Positions 712 through 62,612 of a stretch of DNA of 64,000 nucleotides are shown here, in pieces. The notes below the pieces were generated by a model. The model was given only the letters and a program-made list of their open reading frames with translations, did not search any database and was not told where the DNA came from. The DNA is from Escherichia coli. GTDB taxonomy: Bacteria > Pseudomonadota > Gammaproteobacteria > Enterobacterales > Enterobacteriaceae. The position numbers were made by a program, and so were the translations under genes. Location of the stretch: NCBI RefSeq assembly GCF_051903065.1, contig NZ_CP178438.1; one strand, given 5' to 3'. Numbering within the stretch: position 1 is the stretch's first letter; each line of letters opens with the position of its first letter.

Positions 712-1393
712 GTTGGAGTCATTACCAACCGCTTAGTGCCAGCAAAACACCCAGCGTCAATCTACTGAATTTCGTTGTCAGTCCAGAGGATTTTCGCAAA
801 TTAACCGTTGATGTTTTACCTACCCTGCGAGTTAATTCCGAGCAGGCCTGAAATACCTCTAGAGTGCAATTCCATATCACGCGATAGATTCTATTCATAT
901 AAACGCTCCATATACAAACAATACAGCCACGAAAGAGATGAGTCGTCAGACATTAAAAATGAAATTTATTAAATTGTCAGAGGTCTGTATTGAGTGTTAG
1001 TTGGAGGTGGGAAAGTGTCAATTTGGCTAATTTGCTAATACTTTCGAATTGATAGATTAAAAATTGCATAGTTCTTATTTCATTTAAAAATGAACTATGA
1101 GTTATTGTTGCTTAATAAGAAAACTGTTTCTTTCAGTAGGAAAATTATCATCATCATATTTAACAAAGAATAGCACTAATTGCTAAAAATCGAAGTTTAT
1201 TAAACCCCTTTTGCATCCATTAATGTCTTTAAGAATATTCGTTATAAAATAAGGGTTATGCTTAATTCTTTAAGAAAAATAGCAATTTTCCCTTGAATAT
1301 AGTACTGGTGATGAAACGATGAATCTGCAAGCTGGCATTTAACAAGCCAGCTCTAAAAGAAGGGAAATAAGAATAACTATACTCAAAAACTAA

Positions 1394-1428: not shown

Positions 1429-3021
1429 CTATAACCCAGGCGCTTTCCATAACGACGTCGTCAGTCCATGATCAACCAGCCCCAGCTGATCCTGATAAAC
1501 TGCCTGCCACTTATCGCGTGAATCCTGATAAAGTTCATGCTTTTCCGGGTCTGGTGTGTGCGTCCGTTCCCAGCGAACCAGGCGTTCTCCGGTTTCTGCC
1601 ATTGATGAAAAAATTCCGGCACCGACGCCAGCTGCAATGGCACATCCTAATGCAGTGGCTTCTTTGACCACCGGAATATTGACGGGTAATCCCGAGACAT
1701 CAGCGAGAATTTGACTCCATAATTTCCCTTTTGAACCTCCGCCTGCAAAGACTAACGATGAAGGATGAATATTCGAAAAATCAGCAATTTGCTGCAAGTT
1801 ACACGCTGATACAATCGCCGCATTTTCTTCCAGCGCACGGAACAATGTCGCTTTGTTACATTTATCCGGGTCAATGGACAAATTAATAAAGGAAGGCGCA
1901 GCGTGATACCAGGTTTTAAAGCGCATTCTGTCGGAGAAGATCGGCATTACGCCCCACGACCCAGGCGGCACCCGACTGGCCATCTCTTCCAGCAGCGTAT
2001 AGGTGTCGATGCCTAAATGTTCGGCAATCAGTTTTTCTTCGGCACAGAAAGCATCGCGGAACCAGCGCATGGTGAGTCCGGTAAAAAAGCTTATAGATTC
2101 AGCTTGTACCATGCCAGGAATAACATGAGGATTAACGCGCACGTTCATTTCTGGGTCTGTCACCGGCGCGGCTAAATTTACAACTTGCTGCCAGAATGTG
2201 CCGCCAAGAACCGCGGTTTGTGCCGGACGCACAACGCCTAACCCCAGGCAACCAAGCTGCACGTCGCCTCCTCCAACGACCACCGGAGTGCCCACCTTCA
2301 GACCGCAGAGTTCCGCCGCTTGTGAACTTACCACGCCCAGCAATGTGCCGGTTTCTTTGACAGGAGAAAGAATATCGGCACGCAGGCCAGCCATATCCAG
2401 CAATGCAGGTTTCCAGTCACGGATGGTTAGATCAAGAAGTCCCGTGGTGCCAGCGTTAGAGGGATCCACCGCAAGTTCGCCGCTGAGCATATAGGCCAGC
2501 CAGTCGCTGATCATGGTGATGGTTGATGCCTGACGGTAAATATCGGAACGATGGTGCGCCAGCCAAAGTAATCTGGGGATGGCACTTAAAGCCAGTGTTT
2601 GTCCGGTCGCGCGATAAACTTCGTTTTCAAAGGTATTGTTGTGCAGTTCTTTAAGTTCGCTAACTTCGCGCGCCGCTCTGGCATCCACATTGGCGCAGGC
2701 CCAGATCGGTGTTCCTTCATTGTTATATAAAACAATGCCTTCACGCATCGAACATGCCGAAACGGCAGCTATATACTCCGGGGCTATGCCGGCGTTGTGC
2801 AACGCCTGGCGCATACACTCACACGCCAGTTGCCAGTTTTTGTTGAGATCAAATTCCATAGAACCAGGAACGTCCGGTACTGCCAGATGCCGCCACTCCG
2901 CCTGTCCCACTGCTATTTGATTGCCTTCCAGGTCGAATATCACAGCCCGAATACTTCCGGTGCCTGCATCCAGCGCCATCAGGTAGTACTTTGATTCTGA
3001 AGGGGTAAAGAGTCGAGCCAT
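1429..3021 (-). CDS. lsrK: Autoinducer-2 kinase
   Basis: 530-aa ORF, FGGY sugar-kinase-like; position and divergent orientation relative to lsrA match the lsr locus. Confidence 0.9.
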
Positions 3022-3099
3022 TAGATTATCCTCGGCTTATGCGTTCTGTCTGTTCCTCTATACGTTCTCCATCATTCCCGGTAATAAGGTCATGCAAAT

Positions 3100-4053
3100 T
3101 TAACTACGTAAAATCGCCGCTGCTGTGTCCTGATCGGTAACCAGTGCGTTGATATAACCGCCTTTCATTGCAGCGGCAATTGCTTCGGCTTTATTTTCTC
3201 CCCCTGCCACGCCAACCCGGACGGGTATGGTCTTCAGCGCGCTTAAAGGTAAGCCAATCAGTTCGTTATGTATTTTGATATCCGTGACAACGTCACCTTT
3301 TGCATCAAAAAAGTAGCCTAAAATGTCGCCAACCGCCCCTTTTCGGCCAATCATTAACTGTTCGCCCTGGCTGATATAACCGGAGCGAATGATCGTCGCG
3401 TCGTCTTGTTGACTCACGGCCCCAATGCCGACAATCGCCACATCCGCTGCTTGCGCGGCTAACAGAACATCTTTGACGCAATTTTCATTTTTTAGCGTAC
3501 GGGCAATGTCAGCGGAGGATGCCCGCAACGGAGCCGGAATAATATTCACACTGCACGCCGCGTTAAGCTGTCCGATACCCGTCATATAAGAACCGACGCC
3601 ACCGGAGAGCGTGACCAGGCGAATTTGCTGTGACGAAATAAAACCACTTAAGCGTTGCAGCGTATTCATGGTTGCCTCGCCAAAACCAATCGCCAGCATC
3701 TGTTGTGGTTGAAGTAAACTCATCAACATATGCGCCGCGCCTATCCCCAGTCGCCCGCCGACATCAGCATCCGCAAGCCCAGGGATCACCCGGACATGTT
3801 GCAGCGAAAACTGACTACGTAATTGTGTTTCATATTCCAGACAGCCTTCAAAGCGAGAATTAATCTGCACGCGAATGATGCCGGACTGATGCCCTTTCTC
3901 CAGTAATCGCGACACTTTCAAACGGGTCAGGCCGAGACGATCGCTGATCTCACTCTGGGTCAGCCCGTCGTGGTAGTAAAACCACGCGATCCGCGCGACC
4001 TGTTCTTCTTCACACATTCCCTGTTCTGAAATTGCCGAATCGTTGATTGTCAT
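3100..4053 (-). CDS. lsrR: lsr operon transcriptional repressor (SorC/DeoR-like)
   Basis: 317-aa ORF with N-terminal HTH and sugar-phosphate-binding C-terminal domain; sits between lsrK and divergent lsrA. Confidence 0.9.
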
Positions 4054-4301: not shown

Positions 4302-5837
4302 ATGCAAACGAGTGATACCCGCGCGTTACCGCTACTTTGCGCCCGCTCGGTTTATAAACAGTATTCAGGGGTTAATGTCCTGAAAGGCATCGATTTTACG
4401 TTGCACCAGGGGGAGGTCCACGCCCTGCTCGGCGGCAATGGTGCCGGTAAATCGACGTTAATGAAGATTATTGCCGGTATTACCCCTGCTGATAGCGGTA
4501 CGCTGGAGATTGGGGGCAACAACTACGTCAGATTAACGCCAGTTCATGCTCATCAGCTGGGTATTTATCTCGTTCCCCAGGAACCGCTGCTTTTCCCAAG
4601 CCTGTCGATAAAAGAAAACATCCTGTTTGGGCTGGCAAAAAAACAGCTCTCCATGCAGAAAATGAAGAACTTGCTGGCGGCGCTGGGCTGCCAGTTTGAT
4701 CTGCATAGTCTGGCAGGATCGCTGGATGTCGCCGATCGCCAAATGGTGGAAATCCTCCGCGGGCTGATGCGCGACTCGCGGATTCTGATCCTCGATGAAC
4801 CTACCGCCTCGCTTACCCCTGCGGAAACCGAACGCTTGTTTAGTCGCTTGCAAGAGCTGCTTGCTACTGGCGTGGGTATTGTTTTTATCTCGCATAAGCT
4901 GCCGGAAATTCGCCAGATTGCCGATCGAATTAGCGTGATGCGCGACGGAACCATCGCCTTAAGCGGCAAAACCAGCGAACTGTCTACCGACGACATTATT
5001 CAGGCCATCACGCCAGTGGTACGGGAAAAACCGCTCTCTGCCAGCCAAAAATTATGGCTGGAGTTACCTGGTAACCGCCCACAACATGCCGCCGGAACGT
5101 CGGTGCTGACACTGGAAAATCTGACTGGCGAAGGTTTCAGGAATGTCAGCCTGACGCTCAATGCCGGAGAAATTCTGGGCCTGGCTGGGCTGGTGGGAGC
5201 CGGACGCACAGAACTGGCCGAGACGCTCTATGGTCTGCGTACTTTGCGTGGCGGACGCATTATGCTGAATGGTAAAGAGATCAATAAATTATCCACTGGA
5301 GAACGTTTACTGCGCGGTCTGGTTTATCTGCCGGAAGATCGCCAGTCATCCGGACTGAATCTCGATGCTTCGCTGGCCTGGAACATCTGCGCCCTTACTC
5401 ATAACCTTCTTGGATTCTGGGCGAAAACCGCGAAAGATAATGCCACCCTGGAACGTTATCGTCGGGCGCTGAATATTAAATTTAACCAACCGGAACAAGC
5501 TGCACGGACATTATCCGGTGGCAACCAGCAAAAAATCCTCATTGCCAAATGCCTGGAAGCTTCGCCGCAAGCATTGATTGTCGATGAGCCGACGCGCGGC
5601 GTGGATGTCTCGGCCCGTAATGATATCTACCAGCTGTTGCGCAGCATCGCCGCACAGAATGTGGCAGTGCTGCTTATCTCCTCTGATCTGGAAGAGATCG
5701 AACTGATGGCAGATCGTGTGTATGTGATGCATCAGGGCGAAATTACCCACTCTGCACTGACCGGGCGCGATATTAATGTCGAGACTATTATGCGCGTTGC
5801 CTTCGGCGATAGTCAGCGTCAGGAGGCGTCATGCTGA
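4302..5837 (+). CDS. lsrA: AI-2 ABC transporter ATP-binding protein (duplicated ABC domains)
   Basis: 511-aa ORF with two Walker A motifs ([19 protein letters not shown]) and two LSGG signatures. Confidence 0.9.
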
Positions 5838-10100: not shown

Positions 10101-10585
10101 GGCGAATTTATCCGGTGCGCCGTAAAACCCCGTCCTTCAGGGCGGGGATATAAGGCGCGGTTTTCCACCTGACCAGGTGTTTGCTGTTGTTCAATGTATT
10201 GGCGGATGACGGATATTGGCGCACCTCCGCAGCTACTGGCAAAATAGCCAGGACTCCACAAAACGCCTTTGTAGTAATACCTGACTGCAATATCTGGTCG
10301 ATCTCGTCGCAGTAACCTACCTGATACGCTTTTGAGGCTGTTTACCAGACTGGATATCGCCAGTTTGGGAGGATAGTTAATTAACAAATGGACGTGATCT
10401 GGTTCGCCATCCATTTCAACCAGTTCAGCTTCAAAATCAGCACATACATTTGAAAAGTAAGTGCGTAGTTTTTCTGTCGCGTCATGGTCAAAAATCTGGC
10501 GTCGGTATCTGGTGACAAAGACCATGTGAACATGCTTCAGGAAAACACAATGCCTTCCACGCCGGATATCTGTTTCTTTTTTCAC
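10019..10585 (-). CDS. tnpA: IS200/IS605-family Y1 (HuH) transposase TnpA; ORF is C-terminally extended past the likely element end
   Basis: Resembles IS200 TnpA including the HVHLL motif (HuH); 188 aa versus about 150 typical, with the last ~30 codons running over the lsrG 3' end. Confidence 0.75.
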
Positions 10586-36059: not shown

Positions 36060-37343
36060 TTAAAGACTTCTGGAAGGTTGCGCAGCTCTTACAACACGCG
36101 GTTGATCTTCCGCAGCGTCTTCCAGCGCACTTAAATCACGGTCTTTCACTTCTGGCATTTTCAGCGCAGAGATTAAACCAATCACTGAATATGCCATGAT
36201 CATAATGGCGATTGGATACCAGGATTCCGTCATGGTGCAGAAAATACCCGCCAGGATAGGACCAAAACCGGAAGCGATAAGACCACCAATTTCTTTAGAA
36301 ATAGCCATCCGGGTAAAGCGGTTTTTACAGCCGAACATTTCTGCCATGGTAATGTTTTCCAGAGCAAATAATCCCAGCACCGCACAGTTATGAATCACAA
36401 TCAGTGCAACCATAATGGTGCTCGGGGCATAGCTTTTATCTACGATGATAGAAAGCATTGGCCATGCCAGCACAATCGCGGAGGTATTCATAATAATATA
36501 CGGGATCCGGCGACCAATTTTATCGGATAACCAACCAAGGAACGGAATGGTCATAAAGCCGAGAATCGAACTAATCATCAATGCATCTGTTGGAATTGCT
36601 TTGTTAAACAATAACGTCTGCACTAAATAGCCTGCAAGGAAAGTCTGAATTAACCCGGAGTTACCCGCCTGACCAAAACGCAGCCCTGTTGCCAGCCAGA
36701 AGGATTTGCTCTGGAACATGCTACCAGCAGGTGCAGGTTTTGCTGTCGGTTGGTTGCTGTCGTTAACCTTCTCAAAGACCGGGCTTTCTTTCAGATTCAT
36801 ACGCAACCAGATAGCAAAGACCATCACGACAACGCTCGCCAGGAACGGTATACGCCATCCCCACGCCAGCAGTTCCTCTTTACTGAGAATGAAGAACATA
36901 AAGGCCCAGATTGCCGTTGCGCTTAAGGTTCCGCAGTTAGTTCCCATAGCCACAAATGAGGAGATAATTCCGCGCTTACCTTTTGGCGCATATTCCGCCA
37001 GCATCGTACCGGCACCGGAAATTTCCGCACCTGCACCCAACCCCTGAATAATACGCAGCGTCACCAGCAAGATGGGTGCAAAAACACCAATCTGTGCATA
37101 GGTCGGTAACACACCAATTAAGGTGGTACAGATCCCCATCATGGTGATGGTAATAAAGAGCACTTTTTTACGCCCTATTCTGTCGCCCATTTTGCCGAAA
37201 ATAAATGCTCCGACAATACGCGCCACATAACCTGCACCGTAGGTTCCCATTGCCAGAATTAACGCCATTGCCGTTGATGATTCAGGAAAAAATATTTCAT
37301 GAAACACTAACGCTGCGCCGAGTGAATATAACTGGAAATCCAT
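36060..37343 (-). CDS. ydfJ: MFS metabolite:H+ symporter-family transporter, probably N-terminally truncated at the prophage junction
   Basis: 427-aa MFS ORF whose 5' end abuts an abrupt shift to AT-rich phage-like DNA at about 37345. Confidence 0.7.
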   Translation of the reverse strand: MDFQLYSLGAALVFHEIFFPESSTAMALILAMGTYGAGYVARIVGAFIFGKMGDRIGRKKVLFITITMMGICTTLIGVLPTYAQIGVFAPILLVTLRIIQGLGAGAEISGAGTMLAEYAPKGKRGIISSFVAMGTNCGTLSATAIWAFMFFILSKEELLAWGWRIPFLASVVVMVFAIWLRMNLKESPVFEKVNDSNQPTAKPAPAGSMFQSKSFWLATGLRFGQAGNSGLIQTFLAGYLVQTLLFNKAIPTDALMISSILGFMTIPFLGWLSDKIGRRIPYIIMNTSAIVLAWPMLSIIVDKSYAPSTIMVALIVIHNCAVLGLFALENITMAEMFGCKNRFTRMAISKEIGGLIASGFGPILAGIFCTMTESWYPIAIMIMAYSVIGLISALKMPEVKDRDLSALEDAAEDQPRVVRAAQPSRSL

Positions 37344-37946
37344 AATTCACAGGTGTTTTTTCCCATCCTGTGGTTTCCTTGGCGTTTTCTAGGTTTTTTC
37401 AGATAGTTGCATTTTTTAAAAAGCATCCTAAGTTCGATCTCAGTGTCTATCTGGGGCCTATTTCTGTCCCATATATGCCCCAAAAAAACTCCCCAACAGA
37501 TAAGTAGTTTTTTCATGGATTTATGCGTAAAATCAAGAACGGCTGGAAATCATTCAATACTCACACTATCGAAAAATTTACCAGCCAACCGCAGCACGTT
37601 CTTGCATAAGGCGTGTCTGCGTTTTTTCAACTATTCAGATACATCACTCCCATCACAGTCATTCCTCCGCATCAAAGGCATATAGGCTATATCACCTTGA
37701 TATTTTTCTTTTTCAGATAAAAACTGTTATCTATGTATACTTTTAAACCCAATCCGTGTAGAGTCTCTGCATAAGATAGTTTGCAGTTGCCGCTTCAGCT
37801 TGCGCCATAAACCGCCTGATTTTTGCTGCCACCTGCTAGCATTCCTGTATACCTGAAACGACAATGTTTATCTACGAACTTTAAAAACACCCAAGATAAA
37901 AATTGTCAACTATATCATATATAACACATTACTAATTCGAGGCTAT

Positions 37947-38060
37947 ATGAACAGCATACTGATAATCACTTCTCTCCTTATCATATTCAGCATTTTTAGT
38001 CATGCCCTAATAAAATTAGGGATTGGCATATCCAATAACCCAGACAAAACCGATGTATAA
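37947..38060 (+). CDS. Candidate small hydrophobic protein (37 aa)
   Basis: ATG...TAA encodes [37 protein letters not shown], a single predicted TM helix; no homology check possible here. Confidence 0.3.
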
Positions 38061-38128
38061 GTCAACATATCCTGAATCAGACATACAATATCGCAATGAA
38101 AATCAATAATATTTTAAGGAATATCTTC

Positions 38129-38362
38129 ATGAAATCAAAAGACACCCTAAAGTGGTTCCCTGCGCAGCTTCCTGAAGTAAGAATTATCCTAGGGGATGCT
38201 GTAGTGGAAGTAGCAAAACAGGGAAGACCTATTAATACCAGAACATTGCTTGATTACATTGAAGGAAACATAAAGAAAAAATCATGGCTGGATAACAAAG
38301 AATTATTACAAACAGCGATATCAGTTCTTAAAGACAACCAAAATTTAAATGGTAAAATGTAA
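38129..38362 (+). CDS. ydfK: Prophage cold-shock-induced protein YdfK
   Basis: 77 aa from MKSKDTLKWFPAQLPEVRIILGDAVVEVAK... Confidence 0.8.
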   Translation: MKSKDTLKWFPAQLPEVRIILGDAVVEVAKQGRPINTRTLLDYIEGNIKKKSWLDNKELLQTAISVLKDNQNLNGKM

Positions 38363-38679
38363 TATAATAAACTTACTTTTTTATCATTTTTCCACTTTAA
38401 CAACATTTTTCTCCACTTTTCCACGTCCAAACAACTTGAAATCTGGTTAAAATAACACGCAACACTATTCTTCTTCCTTGAGTCCGCCCGGAACTCGAAA
38501 AACAAACCGAGTTAAAGCCATTTTTCACAAAATCGATTTTGGGTCTCACCAAAAATTACGGGGTTGCATACGCATTCGTTTATTTTCGAACGTGTACATA
38601 CAAATATGCACAAAAATAATCATAATTATTTTCTGAGATGCATTATGATATGAACACCAATTTCGAATAGAGTCTCACT

Positions 38680-39270
38680 ATGTCTCGAATTTTTGCTTAC
38701 TGTCGGATATCAACGCTGGATCAGACCACCGAAAATCAACGCCGGGAAATCGAAAGTGCAGGTTTTAAAATCAAACCTCAGCAAATAATCGAAGAACACA
38801 TTAGCGGCTCAGCAGCAACCAGTGAGCGTCCTGGTTTTAACCGGTTGCTTGCTCGCCTGAAATGTGGTGATCAATTGATTGTGACAAAACTGGATCGCCT
38901 TGGTTGTAATGCAATGGATATCAGGAAAACAGTGGAACAACTGACCGAAACAGGTATCAGAGTGCATTGCTTAGCATTGGGTGGCATTGACCTGACCAGT
39001 CCAACAGGAAAAATGATGATGCAAGTAATTTCAGCAGTCGCTGAATTTGAACGAGACCTTTTACTTGAACGCACTCATTCCGGGATAGTAAGAGCCCGCG
39101 GCGCAGGGAAACGTTTTGGTCGACCACCTGTGTTAAATGAAGAACAGAAACAGGTGGTATTCGAACGAATTAAGTCAGGTGTAAGTATAAGTGCCATTGC
39201 CCGGGAATTCAAAACCTCGCGGCAAACCATTTTAAGAGCCAAAGCAAAACTTCAGACACCTGACATATAA
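38680..39270 (+). CDS. pinQ: Serine recombinase, DNA invertase (Pin/Gin/Hin family)
   Basis: 196-aa ORF with catalytic N-terminus [15 protein letters not shown] and C-terminal HTH. Confidence 0.9.
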
Positions 39271-39367: not shown

Positions 39368-39943
39368 CTACGGCAGTGCTGGCCATTCAATATCCTGTGC
39401 AGTTGACGTATCAACACGGTTCAGCAATACCCGATACTTTTTCCATGCTTCCAGCAACGAGATTTCTTCCTCCGTTGCAATTTCCAGATCTGCAGCATCC
39501 TGAAGCGGCGCAATATGCTCACTGGCTACCTGCATCAGGTTGTTTTTTGTTTCTTCCGCCTCCCGGATCCGGAACAGTTTTTCTGCTTCCGTATCCTTCA
39601 CCCAGGCTGTGCCGTTCCACTTCTGAAACTCCCCTTCCGGCGATAACCAGGTAACATTTTCCGGTAACGGACCGAGTTCAGAAATAAATAACGCGTCGCC
39701 GGAAGCCACGTCATAGACGGTTTTTCCCCGATGATCTTCAACGAGATGCCACGATGCCTCATCACTGTTGAAAACAGCCACGAAGCCTGCCGGAATATCT
39801 GGCGGTGCAATATCGGTACTGTTTGCTGGCAGACCTGTATGAGGCGGAATATATGCGTCACCTTCACCAATAAATTCATTAGTTCCGGCCAGCAGATTAT
39901 AAATTTTTATGGTCTGTGGTTGTTCACTCATTCTGAATGCCAT
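39368..39943 (-). CDS. tfaQ: Tail fibre assembly protein
   Basis: 191-aa ORF of the lambda Tfa family, immediately downstream of stf. Confidence 0.85.
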
Positions 39944-48734: not shown

Positions 48735-49080
48735 GATGGTGTTAACTCCAGTCATCGCTGGCACTACCACTGCTGGTTCAGAGTTAAAAAAAACTATGAT
48801 TTTTTTCATGATGTTACCGTAGTATGTGAGTATCCATCGAATAGACACCAAGCAAAAAAGCTCCCGAAGGAGCCTTCATTTTCACTTTTTTAAATCCAAC
48901 GACAGACGGCTGGCATTTAAGTATTGTGAAATATTATCAAATGTAATCATCATTGATTTACAAAAGATACATTTTGCCCCGAAAGGATTCATGTCAGAAA
49001 CATCAAAAGATGATGTTCTATACTGGGAACCATGACAACACGGGCATCTAAAGTGAATATGGTTTGTAATATTGTCTACC

Positions 49081-49293
49081 TCAAAGCGCCACTACATGAA
49101 CAGCGGCAGGACCTTTAGGTCCGTTCTCAATACCAAATTCAACTTCCTGATTCTCAGTTAATGTTTTGAAATCGTTGCTCTGAATTGCTGAGAAATGGAC
49201 AAACACATCTTTGCTGCCATCTTTCGGCGTGATGAAACCAAAACCTTTTTCAGGGTTAAACCATTTCACTAAACCAGTCATTTTGTTAGACAT
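49081..49293 (-). CDS. cspI: Cold shock protein CspI
   Basis: 70-aa [44 protein letters not shown]... Confidence 0.9.
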
Positions 49294-49655
49294 AATTATT
49301 ACCTTTTGAAGAAATTAGCCCTTGGGCAGAATGGTCCGAAAAAAAATATCAGAGAGAAAAACCAACAAGGAAATCTCAAGAGGTACAAATAATAAAATTA
49401 TAACAATGACTGCTTCAGATAAATTTGTAACAAACCAGAACACCATTAACGCATGATTAACCACCCATAGCAAGGATTACTTTTGTAAAGAAAAACACAG
49501 CAATGAAAGAATAGCTTTATTTATTAATAAAACGTGTCATTCTGATTAAGACCTTTTATCTTACCCTTAAGATTTCAGGAATTTTGGCTCATGGAAGAGT
49601 CCTTTTTATTTAAATTTTACATTCCGCGATGTAAATGTTCCGATTTAATATTACC

Positions 49656-50679
<1,024 letters not shown>

Positions 50680-50683
<4 letters not shown>

Positions 50684-50991
50684 AGATATTTATGATGAGG
50701 ACGCTCGTGCTTATTGGCAGGATTTTCAATCTTAAAGGAGTACTGATGCTGCAGATAAGACTCAACTTTTTCTGACAATTTTTCTGCTACTTCCAGGAAG
50801 ACTTGCCGGACGCTCCTTCTGGCTGCTGCCTCATAAAACTCCAGCGCAGCTCCTTCAACACGGTCCATGGCGACATCCAGGTCAAAAATTTCACCGTCAA
50901 AGCGTTCTTTGTCCTGTAAGGCTACAGTTACCGTAACTTTATTCTCAAAATTACGGACTCCTTTCACAACCAGTTCATAGTCTTGAGTCAT
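50680..50991 (-). CDS. ydfR: Prophage protein YdfR (DUF1327)
   Basis: 103-aa ORF between holin and endolysin. Confidence 0.75.
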
Positions 50992-50995
50992 TGGA

Positions 50996-51211
50996 TTACT
51001 CTCCTCTCGCAGCCTTACGCCTGTCTTCTTTAATCTTGAAATAAAGATTTGTCAGATACGTCAGCAGGCAAAAAACCAGGCTACCCAGCACACCGATTGC
51101 AGCCCACTGTGACGGAGTTACTTTATCGAGTAACTGCAATGCCCAGAAACCAGCATTACCCGCCGATGTGCCATAGGCAACACCTGTTGTTAACTTATCC
51201 ATTGATTTCAT
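50996..51211 (-). CDS. essQ: Class II holin (phage 21 S-like)
   Basis: 71 aa from [14 protein letters not shown]... with two TM segments; first gene of the lysis cassette. Confidence 0.8.
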
Positions 51212-51429
51212 ATCCTCACCCCGATGTACACGGATGGTGCAATATGTTTGAAAAGATCGGAGTCTACGGGGTAGTTTTGACAGCACACGTTGTTCTCAAC
51301 GGCGCTAAAAAACATACACATTAAAAATGTGGGTAATTATTTTGAAAGAAAATCATATATAAAATAATAATACGAGAAATGTTTTCATATTTAGTGTACT
51401 GTATACGGCCATTTATACAGGAAATGCCT

Positions 51430-51600: not shown

Positions 51601-51963
51601 TTGATTTTATTAGTAACAAGTATTTTTTATATTTTAATAATATATTTAAAGCAGATAATAAAAAACCCGCCTGAGCGGGTTTGAGATTGTGGTGCTTTTT
51701 GTGGGAGTCATCCACTTACGCACTTTGTTTTGCGATGCCAGCAGTTAGCTTCTGCTGTGAAACTATTCATGCAGCAAACCTGCACTTCACCACAATGGTT
51801 AGCATACTTTTCCTGATTAAGATTTTGCCAAATATGCTGGCCATTGTTTCATGTATTGGACCTCCTTACTTTTTATTAAAGAGATCCAATATTCACTACT
51901 CTGTCCGTATCTCTACTCAGGCATCAGCCTTCTTCGTTATCGTATACAGACGAGCGATGAATT

Positions 51964-52179
51964 TTAATCAGTAATGATGACATTTACTGCTGCAGGACCT
52001 TTAGCACCACTCTCTATAGAGAAGGTAACCTTTTGACCTTCAAATAAGGTTCGATAATTATCATTCTGAATCGCAGAAAAATGCACAAACACATCTTTAC
52101 TACCATCAACAGGAGAAATAAAGCCGAAACCTTTATCAGCGTTAAACCATTTTACTAAACCAGTCATTTTATTTGACAT
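51964..52179 (-). CDS. cspB: Cold shock protein CspB
   Basis: 71-aa [44 protein letters not shown]... Confidence 0.9.
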
Positions 52180-52489
52180 TCTACATTCCTTAACTTGAGC
52201 CTTTCGGCATAAATGGTTTGCATAACAGAAACGACTTCGTACTTAATTGGAGAGACTCAAAGAAGGAATAAGTGAATAACACCTGAAATGAGAACTGCTT
52301 TAGTAAACTACTTCGTATATCGTCTGTTCTTCAAACCGACGCAGTCATTAACTCATAGTTGAACATATGAAGCAATGTTTATTTTAGACATCCAGCCACC
52401 TTCAATCCTATCAAAAAAGTAGTTTTCTCCAGGAACGTGTGTATGGTGCACCAGGTTATCAGTATTAAGGAGTTTTTCTGTCCCCTAAA

Positions 52490-55741: not shown

Positions 55742-55897
55742 TTACTCCTCAGGTTCGTAAGCTGTGAAGACAGCGACCTCCGTCTGGCCGGTTCGGATTC
55801 GTACCTCGCAGAGGTCTTTCCTCGTTACCAGTGCCGTCACTATGACGGTTAAACAGATGACGATCAGGGCGATTAACATCGCCTTTTGCTGCTTCAT
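55742..55897 (-). CDS. hokD: Hok-family type I toxin (51 aa)
   Basis: Read from DNA: MKQQKAMLIALIVICLTVIVTALVTRKDLCEVRIRTGQTEVAVFTAYEPEE. Confidence 0.85.
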   Translation of the reverse strand: MKQQKAMLIALIVICLTVIVTALVTRKDLCEVRIRTGQTEVAVFTAYEPEE

Positions 55898-56499: not shown

Positions 56500-56535
56500 T
56501 ACACCTCTTGTAATTACAAATGTCATTACAAGTAT
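56500..56535 (-). promoter_or_regulatory. relBE promoter/operator (relO) inverted hexad repeats
   Basis: CTTGTAATTACAAATGTCATTACAAG contains palindromic TTGTAAT/ATTACAA elements immediately upstream of relB. Confidence 0.6.
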
Positions 56536-56825
56536 CGCACTACAACATGCTTAGGGCAAGTCACGAAGGAAGTCAGAAAGTAGTCGTAAGAACGGTGATC
56601 ACTGTCCGCTTTGTGCCAGGAGCAGCCATTGCTAAGTCCATCCTGTATTGTGCAGGTCAGCTCGTTTTTAAAGAGTCCGGCCATCATCTTACTGGTACAG
56701 ACACCATATACTTTGTGACGGTCAGGCTACATATGCACAACTCAACTTATTCATCTATTTTTTGCTTTAGCATGTCAGTGTTGCTTTCTCGTCGGCGGGT
56801 GAGCGGTGACCTGACCTGTCGATAA
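56520..56825 (+). CDS. ydfV: Prophage protein YdfV
   Basis: 101-aa ORF divergent from relB; K-12 gene order. Confidence 0.65.
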   Translation: MSLQVSHYNMLRASHEGSQKVVVRTVITVRFVPGAAIAKSILYCAGQLVFKESGHHLTGTDTIYFVTVRLHMHNSTYSSIFCFSMSVLLSRRRVSGDLTCR

Positions 56826-57027
56826 AGGAACGTAACACGTTTTATGCAACACCCGCATGCGGCAGAAAATTATTGCCGAACGTTTACCCCTGTCAACAAG
56901 CTTTACTTTCTGAGGCGCGCCAGCCCGCGAGGAAAACAATCTGAACATCAAACAATTAATGACACAAGAAATACGATTAAAGATTTTTTTGTACATGCCG
57001 ATAGTGCTTTTTTAAAAGGAGAAATCT

Positions 57028-57360
57028 ATGTCTGTCACAATTCAGGGAAATACCTCAACCGTTATTTCAAACAACTCCGCCCCGGAAGGAACATCAGAAA
57101 TAGCCAAAATCACAAGACAAATTCAGGTGCTGACTGAAAAGCTTGGGAAAATCTCATCGGAAGAGGGGATGACGACACAGCAGAAAAAAGAAATGGCTGC
57201 ATTGGTACAGAAGCAAATTGAAAGCCTCTGGGCTCAACTGGAGCAGTTGTTAAGGCAGCAGGCAGAGAAAAAGAATGAAGACGCGACAGTTCAGCCTGAT
57301 AAAAAAGAAGAGAAAAAAGACGATACAAATACCGCTGGCACCATTGATATTTACGTCTAA
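57028..57360 (+). CDS. flxA: FlxA (FliA-regulated protein)
   Basis: 110-aa ORF MSVTIQGNTSTVISNNSAPEGTSEIAKITRQIQVLTEKLGK... Confidence 0.85.
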   Translation: MSVTIQGNTSTVISNNSAPEGTSEIAKITRQIQVLTEKLGKISSEEGMTTQQKKEMAALVQKQIESLWAQLEQLLRQQAEKKNEDATVQPDKKEEKKDDTNTAGTIDIYV

Positions 57361-57373
57361 GTGACAGCCGTAT

Positions 57374-57402
57374 TGTGGCCCTCATCGGGCCACTTTTCGC
57401 CA
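57374..57402 (+). terminator. Candidate terminator after flxA
   Basis: TGGCCCTCATCGGGCCA stem followed by CTTTTCG. Confidence 0.45.
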
Positions 57403-57796
57403 TCAGCCTTTTCTTTAAAGACATATTATCTTTGTATCATTTCTGATAGTTAACATTACAAGATATAAGTAATGGACGCACTCCCAATTAGTCTATTTAA
57501 ATCGCCACGAGTTTAACTGACAACCCATGATCAATTATGAATTGCAACTATTTCTGTAGTCACTTTTGTGGGGACAGTCCACAAAACTGCCAACTTCCGC
57601 TTCTTGCTCTTAGCGGACATTAGCATAGGCTATTTACCATAACGCCTCATTACGCACACCGCCCAGACTGACTCAGCGCGTTTCTGGCATATCCCCGGTA
57701 AAACAAGTAACAAACCACCCGAAAATGAACACCAGAAACGCGACTTAAGAATCTACCCTATGAATGGATATGCACTCAACCGAATCGATCTTGGTT

Positions 57797-59110
57797 TCAA
57801 TCTTTTTTATCGGGATCAGGCTTCTTTTTAGGTAACTTCGGGGGCTTAACTTGCTGATGACTTTGCGTTCGGCGCGTAAGCCAGGGATGGTCAGCTTTAG
57901 GTTTAACATAGTATTTTGAGCGTAAATCAATACGGGCATTATCCACTCGTTCATGGACACTCTTTTCATCATCCGGTGGTATAGGCTCCGGGCCATCAAC
58001 ATACTTTTCCCAGCCCAGCGCTTTCCCGTCATACAGAACGTTAATTTCACCGTCAAAGTTCTCGCATACAGTAACAACCGAATGCCTAAGTCGATATCCC
58101 CGGCCCTCACTGCGTACCTGAAACGCACTGCTTTTGTACTGGAAAGTGAGATTTTTAGACAGAACGCGCTTCGCCTGTAGGCTGAAGATATAACCCAGTT
58201 CCTCTTCAGAATGGTGCACATCAAGATGAGCATTATCAGTAGTACGAGGCGACGTAGCGAACCGGTTGTTATAGGCTTCAATAAAGGTCGGCAACCATGC
58301 ATTTGCTGTTTCAATATCACTGATATTCTGAAGCCGCATTTCTTTGACCAGCCTGTCCTGTAGTGTCTGATTGGCGCGCTCTACCCGCCCTTTTGCCTGC
58401 GGGCTGTTGGCATGGATTGGCTCGATGCCCAGTGTCTTTATCGCACGAGTGAACTGGGTCAGCTCACCTTCCCGCTCTGGGTTATTTACCCTGAATATAC
58501 TGTGTCTATCAGAGTAGAGAGCGAGCGGTACGCCATGATCATTAAGGTAACCCCGGAGGGTTTCCATGTAAGCCCGGGTTGTTTCAGCAGGCACAAAACG
58601 CAACGCCATCAACGCACTGGTGGCATCATCAATGAAAACGATCAGTGTACATCTGGGGCCTCGATTTTCAAACCAGTCATGAGATGAGCCATCAATCTGG
58701 ATCAGTTCACCGTAAGATGGTCGTCGCATGCGGCGTTGATATATACGGGCAATTTTACGACGGCGTTCACGCCATAACCCCTCTTCTATCATCCACTTTC
58801 TGAGAGTTTCAACGGATAAAGATAAACCGTGTATCTCGCGCAATTTTTCGCACGCAAACGTAGGTCCAAAATCAGCGTAACGGCCTTTGAGGAGTGAAAT
58901 TACTGTTGCTCTGAATTCAGTAGAAAAGGAATTATTAGGACGCTTTCCACGTCGGTGGGAAACCAGACCAGAAGGCCCTTCATTTCTATACCGTTGCACC
59001 AGACGTTTAACCTGCCGAATAGAAATGCCAATGCGTGCCGCAGCTTGTTCCTGAATAATCTGAAGTCGGTGGAGTTCCTTATGACTCATCGTAACAGTCT
59101 CTTTGATCAT
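57797..59110 (-). CDS. Single-ORF DDE transposase with N-terminal HTH and rve integrase core (IS481-like; family uncertain)
   Basis: 437-aa ORF; candidate DDE residues in ...IQIDGSSHDW..., ...LYSDRHS..., ...KGRVERANQT...; Lys/Pro-rich C-terminal tail; no companion helper ORF. Confidence 0.7.
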   Translation of the reverse strand: MIKETVTMSHKELHRLQIIQEQAAARIGISIRQVKRLVQRYRNEGPSGLVSHRRGKRPNNSFSTEFRATVISLLKGRYADFGPTFACEKLREIHGLSLSVETLRKWMIEEGLWRERRRKIARIYQRRMRRPSYGELIQIDGSSHDWFENRGPRCTLIVFIDDATSALMALRFVPAETTRAYMETLRGYLNDHGVPLALYSDRHSIFRVNNPEREGELTQFTRAIKTLGIEPIHANSPQAKGRVERANQTLQDRLVKEMRLQNISDIETANAWLPTFIEAYNNRFATSPRTTDNAHLDVHHSEEELGYIFSLQAKRVLSKNLTFQYKSSAFQVRSEGRGYRLRHSVVTVCENFDGEINVLYDGKALGWEKYVDGPEPIPPDDEKSVHERVDNARIDLRSKYYVKPKADHPWLTRRTQSHQQVKPPKLPKKKPDPDKKD

Positions 59111-59444
59111 GAAAAATCCCCCAGAGAATTGTCTGGGGACATTTTAGAATGGTTCAAAGGGGACATTACAGCTTGGTGTTAACAATAGCCTGCTTCTCCG
59201 TGCCTTTCGGCACGTAAGAGGCTAACCTACATGTGTCTAGCATGAAATTGGCCTCAGATTAATGTTAAGCGTCTTGCAGGACGCGTAATGTTAACTGGGG
59301 CTTTTCTCTATCTGCCGTTGGTGTCCATGCCCGAGGCAGATAGCCTCAAGCACCCGCAGTCATTCTACTTAACTAAGATTTCCCCGCAAACCGTTTTTGT
59401 CCAGCACAGTAAATATCCAACTAAACCAATGGAGTTCGCTGTAT

Positions 59445-59663
59445 TTACCGCCAGTATTCAATGCACATGACCGCCATGAACACCCCTAAAAAAAGGGCAT
59501 TTATATATCCAAATATTAATATCAAAACATCAACTTTTTCCATATACCTTGCTGTGAAGATGATGGGCATACATGATGCGAACAACCAGAACGCAACAAA
59601 CAAAAACTGCAATGCGTTTTTCATTATTCCTCCTACAATCAATGTGCAATTACATTTAAACAC
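59445..59663 (-). CDS. Candidate small membrane protein (two predicted TM segments)
   Basis: ORF ...MKNALQFLFVAFWLFASCMPIIFTARYMEKVDVLILIFGYINALFLGVFMAVMCIEYWR; hydrophobic profile only, no homology assessed. Confidence 0.3.
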   Translation of the reverse strand: MFKCNCTLIVGGIMKNALQFLFVAFWLFASCMPIIFTARYMEKVDVLILIFGYINALFLGVFMAVMCIEYWR

Positions 59664-60776
59664 ACCTCAATTTGGCCGGACATATAAATATCTAAACCAG
59701 AAAAAATCACTTACATAGCGTTACAAACTCTTTAGTCTAAAGGTTCATCGTAAAACATTCCCCATACTTATCAGTCCGTTCCGCGCCAGGTAGCTCATTG
59801 CCTTATCTGGCAACCTGTAATCAGGTTTCCGCTTTTTCAGTTGGCTGGTCGTTTAACCGACATAGTTAATCCATTAATCTAGTTGCCGGATGTTGGTGGA
59901 TTTTCGCGTTTTAGTTGTTCATAAAAGTGCACAGCTTTAACCAGTTCTTCTGATGTAACTGGGACTGGTGAGGCAGTGAATAAGGCCTGAATTTGATAGT
60001 TCGGCCTGTCGTTACAATCCTCTTTTTTCGGTACATATTTCCAGTCACCAGACCACTACTTCCCCTGAAAGTCCGTAACGCCTTTTTTCACGTAGCGATA
60101 TCGCCATGCCACTGGTTTTGCTTGCCCCGCCGTTTCATGCCCTTCCTGATAATTAATCTCGCTCATTCATCGCCCCACTCATCACAATATGCTTCGACCG
60201 GAGTTTTTCCCGCTTCATAGTCATCACGCTAGGATTCGACATCAGCAGCACTTCCACCGCGTAACTCACCATAGTCCATTAATAGTTCATCCCGCTCTTC
60301 AAAACTGATGTTATATTTAGCTGAACAAAAATCAGCCACTTTGTTCTTCCTCATCGTCTTTTATTTCGTGGTATGAGTAATTGCAGTAGTTAAAGAAAAT
60401 TTCTTATGCTCCGTCATGAATTTCCTCAGGTGTTGCGTCATCGTCCACTTCGAATACATCCTCAAAATCTCCACCAGCTATTCCCGTTTCAATAATAATT
60501 TTGAACTTTCGCATTTCACTACCGCCCTTTCGGGCGGCCTCCTGATGTTCTGAGGGTGCAGAAATCCATCCGGTTAAGGATTAAATTTTATTTACAGAAC
60601 TGAATTTAATTATTCAGATATACGTATCTGTAGCCTTACGAATCTACTCACTGGATGCCTCTTTCATAAAAATAATCCAGTGGGTTTTATCGTTTTTTCC
60701 CTGTTCGTTGACAGATAACAGGTTTTCTGTCTGTCAGTGCCAGAATCTGGCTTACCGGTATTTGCGTTTCATTCCA

Positions 60777-61133
60777 TTAAAAAATCAGAACGCCGTGCGG
60801 CCTCAACACCCGAAAGGCTTCTTTAAATCTCTGTCGCGAATCATCACGCCAGGCATCTTTATTCAGCCGTCCATATTTCTTTCCCATCCAGGCGTTATCA
60901 CCAACACTCTCAAGATGCGGAGGGTCTAATACAACCATCGAAAAAGATGCGTCTGCAAATGATAATGCACGAAAATCTGCGATAATGTCAGGGCTGATAA
61001 TCAAGCGTCTCCCATTGCGTAATGTGTATCCTTCTTTTCTGATATCGCTGAATATCGCCCGTTCGTCAGACTTATCGAACCAGAACATGCGGCTGCCACA
61101 GCACATATCAAGAATGGTTGCCGGTGCACTCAC
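60777..61133 (-). pseudogene. SAM-dependent methyltransferase-like protein, probably truncated
   Basis: 118-aa ORF with SAM-binding-like ILDMCCGS and a DPPH motif (compare DPPY/DPPW of N6/N4 DNA methyltransferases); too short for a complete enzyme and followed by degraded coding sequence. Confidence 0.5.
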
Positions 61134-61552
61134 TGCGCCACGTCCTGAAAATTACCCTGATAGAAAGCCAGTATGCGCTGCATAACTTCGCTCTTCCGGC
61201 ACTCGCGACAGATTATGTTTAGGCGACTGTCGTAGCGACGTATTTCTCCGTCAGGTGATGACCAGATAAGGTCCGGATCAACCACAGCAGGTTTCTTCAC
61301 CTTTGCCCTCGAGAGTTTTTTGCGGGCGTTTTGCCAGTCCTTACGCGCCTGTTCAGAGGGGAATAACCCGTAGCCGGAGTTGTATACATCGCCACTGGCT
61401 ACCAGCTCTCTGGCAAGAACGCTCATCAGATATCTAGTCGCACCTGTTTTAGCTTCCAGTTGCCGTAACGTCTCACGGCCGCTCTGGCGCACGAGTTCCA
61501 CCACCTGCCATTTAATTTTTTCCCGCTCTTCTTGTGTAAAAACTTTTGCCAC
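61130..61552 (-). CDS. Hypothetical prophage early protein (140 aa)
   Basis: Uninterrupted ORF within the early-right operon; Lys/Arg-rich middle and CxxC near the C-terminus; function unknown. Confidence 0.5.
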   Translation of the reverse strand: MAKVFTQEEREKIKWQVVELVRQSGRETLRQLEAKTGATRYLMSVLARELVASGDVYNSGYGLFPSEQARKDWQNARKKLSRAKVKKPAVVDPDLIWSSPDGEIRRYDSRLNIICRECRKSEVMQRILAFYQGNFQDVAQ

Positions 61553-61592
61553 AAGTCCCCCTTAAAATTACCTCATGACCTGAAATCAACAC

Positions 61593-62612
61593 TTATCCTC
61601 TGAAACCAGGCGGAATTTCTGTATCCGGTTCAGAAATATGATTAACACAACGCTGTACAGGTGAACGTCCCAGGCGGATGACCAGTTCGTCCCATTTTTC
61701 GAGGAGCTTTGACGGGCTCATGATGTTTTTTACCCAGAATGGATCTCGCTGAACCCGACCAAACATTTCGCAAATTTGTCTGTGGCTTCTGCCATCCAGC
61801 ATCCGCATTGTGCGCACGTCATTGGCCCAGGCAGTCCAGTTAGGCTCTTTTGGTCGCATGATCTCGCCATCATCACTGGCTGCCTGTTCGTAGAGACCCA
61901 CGATCCGCCCCCAGATCCACTGCGCACACGCCAAATCCTCCCTGCTACCCCACTGGCGTTTTTTCGCACTAAACACAACCGCGTCGGAGTTCCGGGTTAA
62001 AAAATCCTGTTCAGTCGTCTGCGGGTCCGGTTGCGAAGCTTCCGGACGAAAAGTGTTTTTATTCTCTGTAGTAATCTCTGTTGTATTCTCTGTAAGATCA
62101 TCAGGCCATTTTGACCCGATGACATTGGGTCGTTTTGAACCAATGGAGCGTTTCATTTTGACCTCTTCCATCGTGTCATTTTGACCTGATGGAGCGGCGC
62201 ATTTTGAACCGATGGATTCGCTCAATTTGCCACCATCTAAAAGCTCGCTCCCATAGTTGATCGTGTAGAAATTGGTCATATCGCGCTTTGATTTATTGAG
62301 CTTTTCACAACGCAAAAGCCCCAGCGTTTTCAGACTTGCAAACGCGCGCTTTAACGTTGACTCTGACCAGAATGGGAACTGTTCCAGCCATTGTTCCGTT
62401 GTGTTATAAATCCAGCGAACACCATCACATTCCATGCCGGAGTTGGTATCTCTCAACCAGTAGTGCAGTTGTTGCAAAACAATGGCTTCGTTTAAGCCAA
62501 TTTTCATTGCCAGCTGCGTGTTTATAACCAGTGGGCGTTCAGCAAAAAGAAGGCTCATAATTCCATCCAGCTTTTTGTTGGTATTGCTGTCGATACGCAA
62601 GTTTGAAAGCAA
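61593..62612 (-). CDS. Putative phage replication initiation / replisome organiser protein (O-like position)
   Basis: 339-aa ORF in the position of lambda O; N-terminal region looks like a winged-helix phage replication organiser domain. Assignment by position and general resemblance only. Confidence 0.5.
   Translation of the reverse strand: MLSNLRIDSNTNKKLDGIMSLLFAERPLVINTQLAMKIGLNEAIVLQQLHYWLRDTNSGMECDGVRWIYNTTEQWLEQFPFWSESTLKRAFASLKTLGLLRCEKLNKSKRDMTNFYTINYGSELLDGGKLSESIGSKCAAPSGQNDTMEEVKMKRSIGSKRPNVIGSKWPDDLTENTTEITTENKNTFRPEASQPDPQTTEQDFLTRNSDAVVFSAKKRQWGSREDLACAQWIWGRIVGLYEQAASDDGEIMRPKEPNWTAWANDVRTMRMLDGRSHRQICEMFGRVQRDPFWVKNIMSPSKLLEKWDELVIRLGRSPVQRCVNHISEPDTEIPPGFRG

Follow-up and report, generated by a model that had tools for sequence, protein, structure and literature searches.

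ynfT of a Qin-type prophage and a second small membrane protein gene in Escherichia coli: coding constraint, gene context and possible functions

Introduction

Several small single-pass membrane proteins act as regulators of larger proteins, such as MgrB and SafA for the sensor PhoQ, AcrZ for AcrB and MgtS for MgtA. Small membrane proteins are also encoded by prophages as part of morons, and gp15 of phage HK97 is an example of a moron-encoded membrane exclusion protein. Next to these, AriR, YmgA and YcgZ are small cold- and blue-light-induced 'connector' proteins, which feed into the Rcs phosphorelay.

The closest described systems for the locus analysed here are YnaM of the Rac prophage and the gene between ydfJ and ydfK in the Qin prophage of E. 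coli K-12. The exact same peptide was given twice in the study of VanOrsdel et al. (2018), i.e., as YnaM in the ynaE/ttcC interval of Rac and as a small open reading frame (ORF) in the ydfJ/ydfK interval at 1632890-1633003, which was named ynfQ in that study (PMC6001520). Both were positive in tetracycline ribosome profiling, and the chromosomally SPA-tagged YnaM and 'YnfQ' proteins were both detected on immunoblots (PMC6001520). Moreover, it was shown that tagged YnaM accumulates to a comparatively high level in growing cells (bioRxiv 10.1101/511675). In the 2024 y-ome survey ynfT is still found among the uncharacterised Qin genes, and a search of the literature yielded neither a functional study nor a published phenotype for ynfT.

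Here, we analysed a stretch of 64,000 nucleotides of E. coli DNA, referred to as the window. A preliminary description of this DNA pointed to two small hydrophobic ORFs, ORF1 and ORF2, close to the prophage ends and suggested that they encode single-helix proteins that are missed by annotation and that might act as toxins, holin-like proteins or superinfection-exclusion factors. In the following, the evidence for coding, the genomic context and the possible functions of both ORFs are discussed.

Identity and genomic position of ynfT

ORF1 runs on the plus strand from the ATG at 37947 to a TAA ending at 38060 and comprises 37 codons, and its quoted translation was reproduced exactly. The start codon is preceded by the Shine-Dalgarno sequence GAGG at 37939-37942 with a spacing of 4 nt. 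The product is identical in 37/37 residues to the translation of ynfT (b4748) of K-12 MG1655 at 1632890-1633003 and identical in sequence to the paralog YnaM of the Rac prophage. In agreement with this, the ORF1 peptide is matched over its full length (1-37) by the Pfam family PF23676 (YnaM-like; 96.2 bits, threshold 27, E 6.5e-28), by the NCBIfam model NF041477 (63.9 bits, cut-off 35) and by the PHROG phrog_35882. The gene order ydfJ'-ynfT-ydfK-pinQ-tfaQ in this part of the window is that of K-12 Qin. The window gene and YnaM/YnfT of K-12 agree in sequence, synteny, length and Shine-Dalgarno sequence, without any difference; the Qin-type prophage of the window is larger and more complete than K-12 Qin. 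A query of 701 bp containing ORF1 matched 2808 of 5426 complete E. coli genomes, and the RefSeq/PGAP labels among the matches listed read 'ynfT: YnaM/YnfT family protein' followed by 'ydfK: cold shock protein YdfK'.

ORF1 is ynfT, a catalogued and translated small membrane protein gene of the lambdoid prophage Qin. It is already known, as it has been named since 2018-2019, is covered by curated family models and has a tagged product that was detected. The suggestion that both ORFs escape annotation does not apply to ORF1, which is present as ynfT/b4748, in Pfam and NCBIfam and in PGAP annotation; it holds for ORF2, which is missing from three RefSeq records and is covered on the wrong strand in a phage record. 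The position of ORF1 just inside the left prophage end was confirmed. The left junction in the window is located at about 37335-37350, prophage-free genomes match only up to 37349, and in K-12 the distance from the Qin start at 1632277 to ynfT at 1632890 places the gene approximately 612 bp inside the prophage end.

The left neighbour of ynfT is a truncated ydfJ on the minus strand (36060-37343). Directly upstream of ynfT on the plus strand lies a conserved block (37895..37946), which begins with GATAAAAATTGTCAA and contains the Shine-Dalgarno sequence GAGG and an A/T-rich promoter-like stretch; the homology to Salmonella starts here. A simple promoter scan gave no strong sigma-70 match near this block. 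By eye, a TATAAC/CATAAT element upstream of ynfT is conserved, and the -35 region is poor. Downstream, a spacer of 68 nt (38061..38128, plus strand) containing the ydfK ribosome-binding site TAAGGAA separates ynfT from ydfK (38129..38362, plus strand), which encodes the cold shock protein YdfK of 77 aa according to annotation, phrog_2718 and the precomputed Pfam assignment PF27475 (YnaE). It is followed on the right by a recombinase ORF (38680-39270, plus strand) and a tail-fibre assembly ORF (39368-39943, minus strand).

Hydropathy analysis predicts one N-terminal transmembrane helix in the ynfT product, spanning residues ~4-22 with Kyte-Doolittle values of 2.5-2.7. No positive charge precedes this helix, and a conserved Lys/Arg follows it immediately. 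The description of the two products as single-helix proteins fits YnfT and does not fit ORF2, for which two helices are predicted (see below).

Purifying selection on the YnfT peptide

The length of the frame was rejected as evidence for coding, as 76% of the shuffles of a non-coding stretch of 785 nt (1514/2000) contained an ATG-initiated ORF of at least 37 codons. Within 3 kb around ORF1, 54 ORFs of at least 20 aa are present. Relatives of ynfT were gathered by using ydfK as an anchor, which avoids selection for the ORF itself and resulted in 28 viral-contig loci. A small ORF with the same start, the same stop and the arrangement GAGG-N4-ATG was found in every ydfK-anchored locus having enough upstream sequence.

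In the Salmonella enterica group, YdfK is 88% identical to the E. coli protein, and ynfT shows a nucleotide identity of 76-81% to its E. coli counterpart. The differences are distributed over the first, second and third codon positions as 6/5/16 and 4/4/14, corresponding to Nei-Gojobori omega values of 0.096 and 0.092, and the other five frames gave omega values of at least 0.34 in this comparison, most of them containing stops. In the tail, i.e., codons 22-36, omega drops to 0.01-0.02; six or seven of the changes there are synonymous, and one is a replacement. The ynfT ORF is also present in two loci with more distant ydfK homologs, L150 and L152 (72% and 67% identical), in which the distance from ynfT to the ydfK ATG is approximately 30 nt versus 68 nt in the window. 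The comparison with L150 yielded an omega of 0.07, and for L152 omega is not computable since synonymous sites are saturated; the codon-position differences are 7/5/18 and 5/4/23, respectively. Across these sequences the invariant core of YnfT reads IIFSI.S.A.I(K/R).GIGISNNPD(K/R)TD, including an invariant polar tail GIGISNNPD(K/R)TD, and the lysines K23 and K34 are replaced only by arginine.

The ynfT frame is conserved and under strong purifying selection with omega values of 0.07-0.10, and selection on YnfT is strongest on the polar tail and not on the helix. Loss of the frame in related prophages or a lack of coding constraint had been proposed as grounds for refuting the two ORFs; both frames are conserved, so that this refutation fails, and the synonymous/non-synonymous pattern shows clear constraint, with omega values of 0.07-0.10 for ynfT and 0.13 for ORF2.

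Purifying selection on the peptide argues for a specific function of YnfT and against a purely regulatory leader. A leader has to be considered here, as transcriptome work, to the extent that it is cited in PMC4152368 and PMC5089854, proposed that riboswitch-like 5' leaders with premature termination lie upstream of ydfK and ynaE, and reported that the short RNAs of these leaders co-immunoprecipitate with Hfq. The proposed leader region is the location of ynfT/ynaM. [quoted passage not shown] However, a pure leader peptide would not show selection at an omega of 0.07-0.10 and of ~0.01 in the tail, ynfT is intact in loci without ydfK, and the protein accumulates stably (PMC6001520; bioRxiv 10.1101/511675). 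Neither conserved RNA structure nor covariation was found, and we consider the leader explanation to be very improbable.

That the ynfT-ydfK interval contains a conserved RNA structure or a terminator was rejected for lack of covariation and of unusual stability. RNAalifold predicted 29 pairs for the ynfT-ydfK RNA with 0 compensatory changes and a covariation term of +0.64, the E. coli RNA folds no better than shuffled sequences (z = -0.93), and a hairpin within E. coli ynfT is broken in Salmonella. Conservation at ynfT resides in the peptide and not in an RNA element.

The ynfT-ydfK module

The alignment of the E. coli and Salmonella loci shows homology from ~52 nt upstream of the ynfT ATG (37895) to the end of ydfK, and the sequences are unrelated further upstream. 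The two genes thus move together, along with an upstream control region that belongs to them. They make up a compact cargo module of the 'moron' type, located between the attachment site and the pin/tail-fibre genes, in which ynfT comes first. ynfT is present upstream of every prophage-type ydfK examined with enough flanking sequence. The surroundings of the module vary: in Qin and Rac it is found beside pin/tfa at the attachment-site-proximal end, in Salmonella it is flanked by the genes for a lipoprotein and a GST-like protein, and in L152 it adjoins DinI and an IS3-type transposase.

The two genes also occur apart from each other. In two Salmonella-type loci (L133 and L134), ynfT and the upstream block are intact and both ydfK and pin are absent. 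Conversely, YdfK-family proteins with 55-64% identity, encoded in Enterobacter, Pragia, Limnobaculum and one E. coli-labelled locus, are found without ynfT, and in these loci the gene is instead divergently paired with a YnfU-family gene. The presence of ynfT without ydfK together with the ydfK homologs of at most 64% identity without ynfT makes an obligate YnfT-YdfK pair unlikely. The split along the series of ydfK homologs, of which those with at least 67% identity carry ynfT and those with at most 64% pair with ynfU, is an observation that relates to a possible young age of ynfT, discussed below.

A HMMER search of 1.84 billion representatives returned no YnfT relatives below 81% identity, all four clusters found being at 81% or above, and scanning a collection with one genome per species for the sequence pattern gave two matches, both labelled as E. 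coli. The more distant members were reached only via the ydfK anchor because gene callers skip the ORF. As far as observed, ynfT does not occur outside the prophages of Escherichia, Shigella, Salmonella and their close relatives. The few relatives found in both scans suggest that the YnfT family is narrow, and by this sequence distribution it looks recent.

The genomic position of ynfT allows for the interpretation that YnfT is a superinfection-exclusion or anti-phage factor in the inner membrane of the lysogen, which blocks the entry of incoming phage DNA. The gene takes a cargo position between attachment site and tail-fibre genes and is preceded by a conserved block of its own, it is retained in loci without ydfK, it is limited to prophages of the genera named above, and YnfT/YnaM is expressed in uninduced lysogens. 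In these respects YnfT resembles exclusion proteins of the HK97 gp15 type, i.e., small membrane proteins that are expressed in the lysogen from an accessory gene among or next to morphogenesis genes, although there is no sequence relationship. On the other hand, none of the PADLOC defence models matches YnfT (nor ORF2 or YdfK), the literature search gave no published ynfT phenotype that would point to exclusion, and the invariant polar tail suggests an interaction on the soluble side, even if this feature does not discriminate between the models. An exclusion role is in our view unlikely, albeit less so than the other alternatives to the partner-binding account set out below.

For the partner gene product YdfK, structure prediction from an alignment of 19 sequences gave a four-helix fold (pLDDT 78.5). 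The best PDB match of this model is YmgB/AriR (2OXL), with a probability of 1.00, TM scores of 0.69/0.84, an rmsd of 1.8 A and a Foldseek E of 0.079. The predicted fold superimposes on that of YmgB/AriR, but the sequence identity amounts to 15%, the match to the YcgZ-family NCBIfam model is weak (E 0.012; 16 bits, cut-off 80), and searches of PDB sequences with YnfT, ORF2 and YdfK gave no match. An association with low temperature is shared by YdfK and the group of YmgB/AriR, YmgA and YcgZ. The fold of YdfK thus appears AriR-like as judged from the model, and YdfK is at most a putative member of the AriR/YcgZ group.

Possible functions of YnfT

Selection that is strongest on the polar tail fits better to a specific protein contact than to a pore or a lipid-disrupting peptide. 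By the positive-inside rule, YnfT would be inserted into the membrane in N-out/C-in orientation; this topology is a guess suggested by the charges flanking the predicted helix, and it would place the tail in the cytoplasm. There, the conserved tail may bind a partner; candidates are the AriR-like YdfK and membrane proteins of the host, for example a sensor or a transporter. YnfT would be a small membrane regulator or anchor acting through its tail rather than a pore former. MgrB, SafA, AcrZ and MgtS are similar to YnfT in size, in having one transmembrane helix and in accumulating stably, and the constraint on YnfT extending past the helix is consistent with a binding surface as in MgrB-type regulators. 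There are differences as well, since no sequence similarity connects YnfT to these proteins, and YnfT is prophage-borne whereas they are encoded chromosomally. We put forward this partner-binding account, with N-out/C-in topology and a tail binding YdfK or a host membrane protein, as a tentative proposal that might well be wrong.

A more far-reaching version would be that ynfT is a young gene born in the 5' leader of the prophage-borne ydfK, and that YnfT and the AriR-like YdfK by now form a signalling module of two parts at the membrane, which responds to cold and alters the envelope or biofilm behaviour of the lysogen. If this were true, the riboswitch-like leader RNA of ydfK/ynaE would be the mRNA of the ynfT-ydfK module. 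This version is speculative and we regard it as doubtful.

Alternatively, YnfT might damage membranes as a type I toxin-like peptide, comparable to Hok, Ldr, Ibs or PepG1, and be held in check at the RNA level. YnfT is small, prophage-borne and contains a single hydrophobic helix, there is a weak match to PepG1 (E 0.055), and the RNA from the ydfK/ynaE 5' region mentioned above binds Hfq. This is opposed by several results. The PepG1 match reaches 13.1 bits with a cut-off of 70, and no Pfam toxin family matches; Rfam yielded sub-threshold noise only at 37300-38700 and no antitoxin RNA. The sole antisense promoter-like site at ynfT matches at 9/12 positions, the scan as a whole finding no more sites than in shuffled sequence, and on inspection of the alignment its hexamers are not conserved in Salmonella. 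Moreover, good accumulation of the tagged protein is seen both during growth and in stationary phase (bioRxiv 10.1101/511675; PMC6001520), and selection is strongest on the polar tail and not on the helix. Hok, YnfT and ORF2 are all small hydrophobic prophage peptides, but neither of the latter two resembles Hok in sequence. The toxin role raised in the preliminary description, like the holin and exclusion roles, is not supported by evidence: a potent toxin is unlikely, considering the abundance of tagged YnaM in growing cells and the score of 13 bits versus 70 for PepG1, and we judge a toxin-like YnfT to be quite unlikely.

A second small membrane protein gene

ORF2 was first read as a frame of 72 codons with a GTG start on the minus strand (59445-59663), located 335 bp from the start codon of a transposase ORF. 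The hydrophobic frame and its proximity to the transposase were found as described, but it is not near a prophage end: ORF2 lies in a replication/nin-like region, and the prophage runs on to the end of the window. The start is most likely the internal ATG at 59624 and not the GTG at 59663, judged from the sequence. A perfect Shine-Dalgarno sequence AGGAGG (59629..59634, minus strand) is positioned 4 nt upstream of the ATG (59624-59622), whereas at the GTG a GAGG is only 1 nt away, and the homology to the relative P0113 begins at the internal Met with unrelated sequence upstream. The 13-codon N-terminal extension to the GTG (59625..59663, minus strand) is probably not translated. Omega, gene calls and hydropathy point to a product of 59 aa (MKNALQ...IEYWR; 59445..59624, minus strand) as the most likely real form of ORF2, with two predicted transmembrane helices (~4-24 and 33-55) connected by a short charged loop.

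No match to ORF2 was found in Pfam, NCBIfam, PHROGs, PADLOC or PDB sequences, and it is absent from the annotation of the three RefSeq records inspected, one of them having a sequence with 100% identity to the window. In GenBank, one phage record has its gene call on the other strand, and the label 'hornerin' is given to the region in two further ones. Protein databases contain ~40 clusters of homologs, which come without exception from Escherichia or Shigella; many are called with 59 aa from the internal Met, and the labels read only 'hypothetical protein' or 'membrane protein'. The exact 59-aa sequence occurs on about 1000 contigs and the region in about 1550 complete E. coli genomes.

The evidence within E. 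coli left it ambiguous which strand is coding. Among 27 close haplotypes from 79 viral-contig loci, nine of ten variable sites are nonsynonymous and one is synonymous; these loci were chosen by protein similarity and are biased, so that the neutral-looking ratio of 9:1 was not used as a decisive test. The comparison with E. coli TA280 (85% nucleotide identity over 59 codons) gave an omega of 0.32, and the antisense frame, which shares the third codon positions, gave an omega equal to that of ORF2. An apparent tandem duplicate of ORF2 in the TA280 scaffold was dismissed, since the same sequence lies on either side of an assembly gap. The ambiguity is resolved by the comparison with P0113. This homolog of 54% identity agrees with ORF2 in length, in its start and in the IEYWR at its end, and it is likewise found in a nin region, in an orientation opposite to its neighbours. 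The omega between ORF2 and P0113 is 0.126 with codon-position differences of 16/10/34, i.e., 34/60 at third positions, while the antisense frame has two stops in P0113 and the homology stops at the ORF boundaries.

From these data it might still be argued that ORF2 is not a gene but an A/T-rich open frame, or that the real gene is the antisense ORF of 85 codons on the plus strand (59461-59718). The missing annotation in the RefSeq records checked, the lack of a family match, the excess of nonsynonymous variants among close haplotypes, the similar omega of the antisense frame in the closer comparison and the antisense annotation in the phage record could all be taken in this sense. Against it stand the omega of 0.126 with its concentration of differences at third positions and the antisense stops in P0113, the perfect AGGAGG in front of ATG 59624 and the confinement of the homology with P0113 to the ORF, and we regard a non-coding ORF2 as improbable. 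Based on these sequence comparisons, ORF2 is evidently a real gene of 59 codons under purifying selection, which belongs to no described family, and its product is most likely an accessory protein acting at the membrane.

A function of ORF1 and/or ORF2 as holin, antiholin or other lysis accessory protein was raised since both are small hydrophobic membrane proteins of a prophage. ORF2 shares with class II holins the presence of two helices, and a weak match to a holin PHROG (E 0.0075) was obtained for one of its homologs. However, the prophage owns a complete lysis cassette at 49656-51286, encoding a P21-type holin, DUF1327, lysozyme and DUF2514 (putative spanin), which is located 8-12 kb from either ORF. 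Furthermore, YnfT and the window ORF2 match no holin model, ORF2 of the window being without any PHROG match, and YnfT/YnaM is expressed in uninduced cells (bioRxiv 10.1101/511675). With its own holin, lysozyme and DUF2514 proteins in the prophage, the holin role put forward earlier is hardly credible for either product.

A toxin locus is found next to ORF2. Approximately 90 bp downstream of ORF2 on the same minus strand lies a remnant of hok/sok, comprising the hok mRNA leader/sok region without the hok coding sequence (59184..59355). It matches the Rfam family RF01794 with 104.1 bits (gathering score 59) over the full model (1-157). An intact relative continues as GGCT ATG AAG CAG (hokD), while the window reads GGCT AT followed by TGTTAACACC, which is the end of an ISNCY-family element; the homology with the intact locus breaks off within the start codon of hok, after AT, where the IS sequence follows with a T. 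This IS end (59111-59184, minus strand) abuts and replaces the hok coding sequence, and the corresponding transposase ORF (57797-59110, minus strand) contains HTH and rve_3 domains and is called by PGAP a pseudogene missing its C-terminus. An intact hokD is present elsewhere in the window (55742-55897). The sequence thus indicates that a genuine small-toxin locus once adjoined ORF2 and lost its toxin gene to the IS element. As homologs of ORF2 are also found away from hok (L139), ORF2 and hok/sok do not form a unit.

Conclusion

As a summary, ORF1 and ORF2 are real small membrane-protein genes. With good confidence, ORF1 is ynfT as part of the ynfT-ydfK module and ORF2 is a second genuine small gene encoding a two-helix protein of 59 aa. 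As a discovery, ynfT adds nothing new, and ORF2, which is undescribed, is an ordinary prophage accessory gene; the current view of prophage biology is unchanged by these findings. The additions are modest. There is, on the one hand, an unannotated gene for a two-helix membrane protein of 59 aa present in ~1550 complete E. coli genomes, for which some records carry the wrong strand. On the other hand, purifying selection on YnfT is quantified across Escherichia, Salmonella and more distant relatives and acts chiefly on the polar tail. Moreover, ynfT and ydfK are described as a mobile module of two genes, and the AriR-like fold predicted for YdfK offers a starting hypothesis for two genes of the 'y-ome'.

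Decay of the prophage on the ORF2 side

Downstream of ORF2, the gene for a 59-residue membrane protein with two helices (59445-59624, minus strand), an orphan hok/sok leader is located at 59184-59355 on the minus strand (RF01794, 104 bits). The end of an ISNCY-family element stands in the place of the hok coding sequence, and the junction at about 59185 splits the hok start codon (ATG to AT/T). The prophage furthermore contains an intact hokD (relF) ORF of the K-12 type downstream of relBE (55742-55897, minus strand). Beside hokD no match to the sok model was found and, therefore, the prophage formerly had two hok loci, each of another type. Moreover, in a record that matches the window with 100% identity over 56500-62500, PGAP calls as pseudogenes two genes nearby, i.e., a frameshifted hypothetical protein gene (59745-60166, minus strand) and a DUF7167 gene that is interrupted by an internal stop (about 60332-60514, minus strand). 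These two pseudogenes and the truncated transposase show that the ORF2-side part of the prophage is undergoing decay.

In public phage records an antisense ORF is annotated over the ORF2 gene or the region is labelled 'hornerin', i.e., in phage PhiR42_1 (L140, 2446-2697) and in phages vB_EcoS-813R8 and vB_EcoS-640R1; these annotations are probably wrong-strand or spurious. In a scaffold of E. coli TA280 (L085) the same ORF2-like sequence is present at 3001-3214 and 3540-3760. A tandem duplication was rejected as the copies flank a run of Ns, which indicates an assembly overlap.

Occurrence of ynfT and ydfK without each other

The small membrane-protein gene ynfT and its downstream cold-shock partner ydfK also occur separately. 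In L144-L148 (around 1170-1734), derived from Pragia, Limnobaculum and one E. coli-labelled locus, YdfK-family genes with 55-64% identity are divergent to a small zinc-ribbon gene of the YnfU family at a distance of approximately 120 nt, and ynfT is absent upstream of the YdfK-family genes in these loci. In K-12, YnfU is itself a small protein of the Qin prophage. Conversely, L133 (~5300-5414) and L134 (~10340-10454, both in oriented coordinates) kept the Salmonella-type ynfT and its upstream block, while ydfK and pin are missing; as judged from the sequence alone, the next gene after ynfT appears to be a tail-fibre-assembly-like gene on the opposite strand.

In L099, a 70-residue ORF (643-855, plus strand) lies upstream of the Salmonella ynfT-ydfK pair at a distance of two genes and is followed by a putative lipoprotein gene. 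By-eye comparison (WLEDKEPLSTALKILDKS vs WLDNKELLQTAISVLKDN) this ORF looks like a divergent YdfK paralog.

RNA-family matches and cold-shock-related elements

Between the prophage end and ynfT, the Shigella chromosomal sRNA CssrB gives a sub-threshold Rfam match (37590-37727, minus strand; 23.8 bits vs a gathering score of 76), which is probably noise. An IS009 RNA family match (Rfam, 221 bits) lies inside the tail-fibre assembly gene tfaQ at 39402-39600 on the minus strand. Two cspA-type thermoregulator leaders (RF01766) were detected on the minus strand at 51917-52340 (159 bits) and 49054-49439 (113 bits) and, therefore, the prophage has several cold-shock-related elements apart from ydfK. 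For the predicted structure of YdfK itself (38129-38362, plus strand), YmgB/AriR (2OXL) is the best PDB match (TM 0.69/0.84, rmsd 1.8 A, E 0.079), and a weak sequence match to the YcgZ family was obtained. This cold-shock protein may thus be one of the AriR/YmgA/YcgZ-like small connector proteins.
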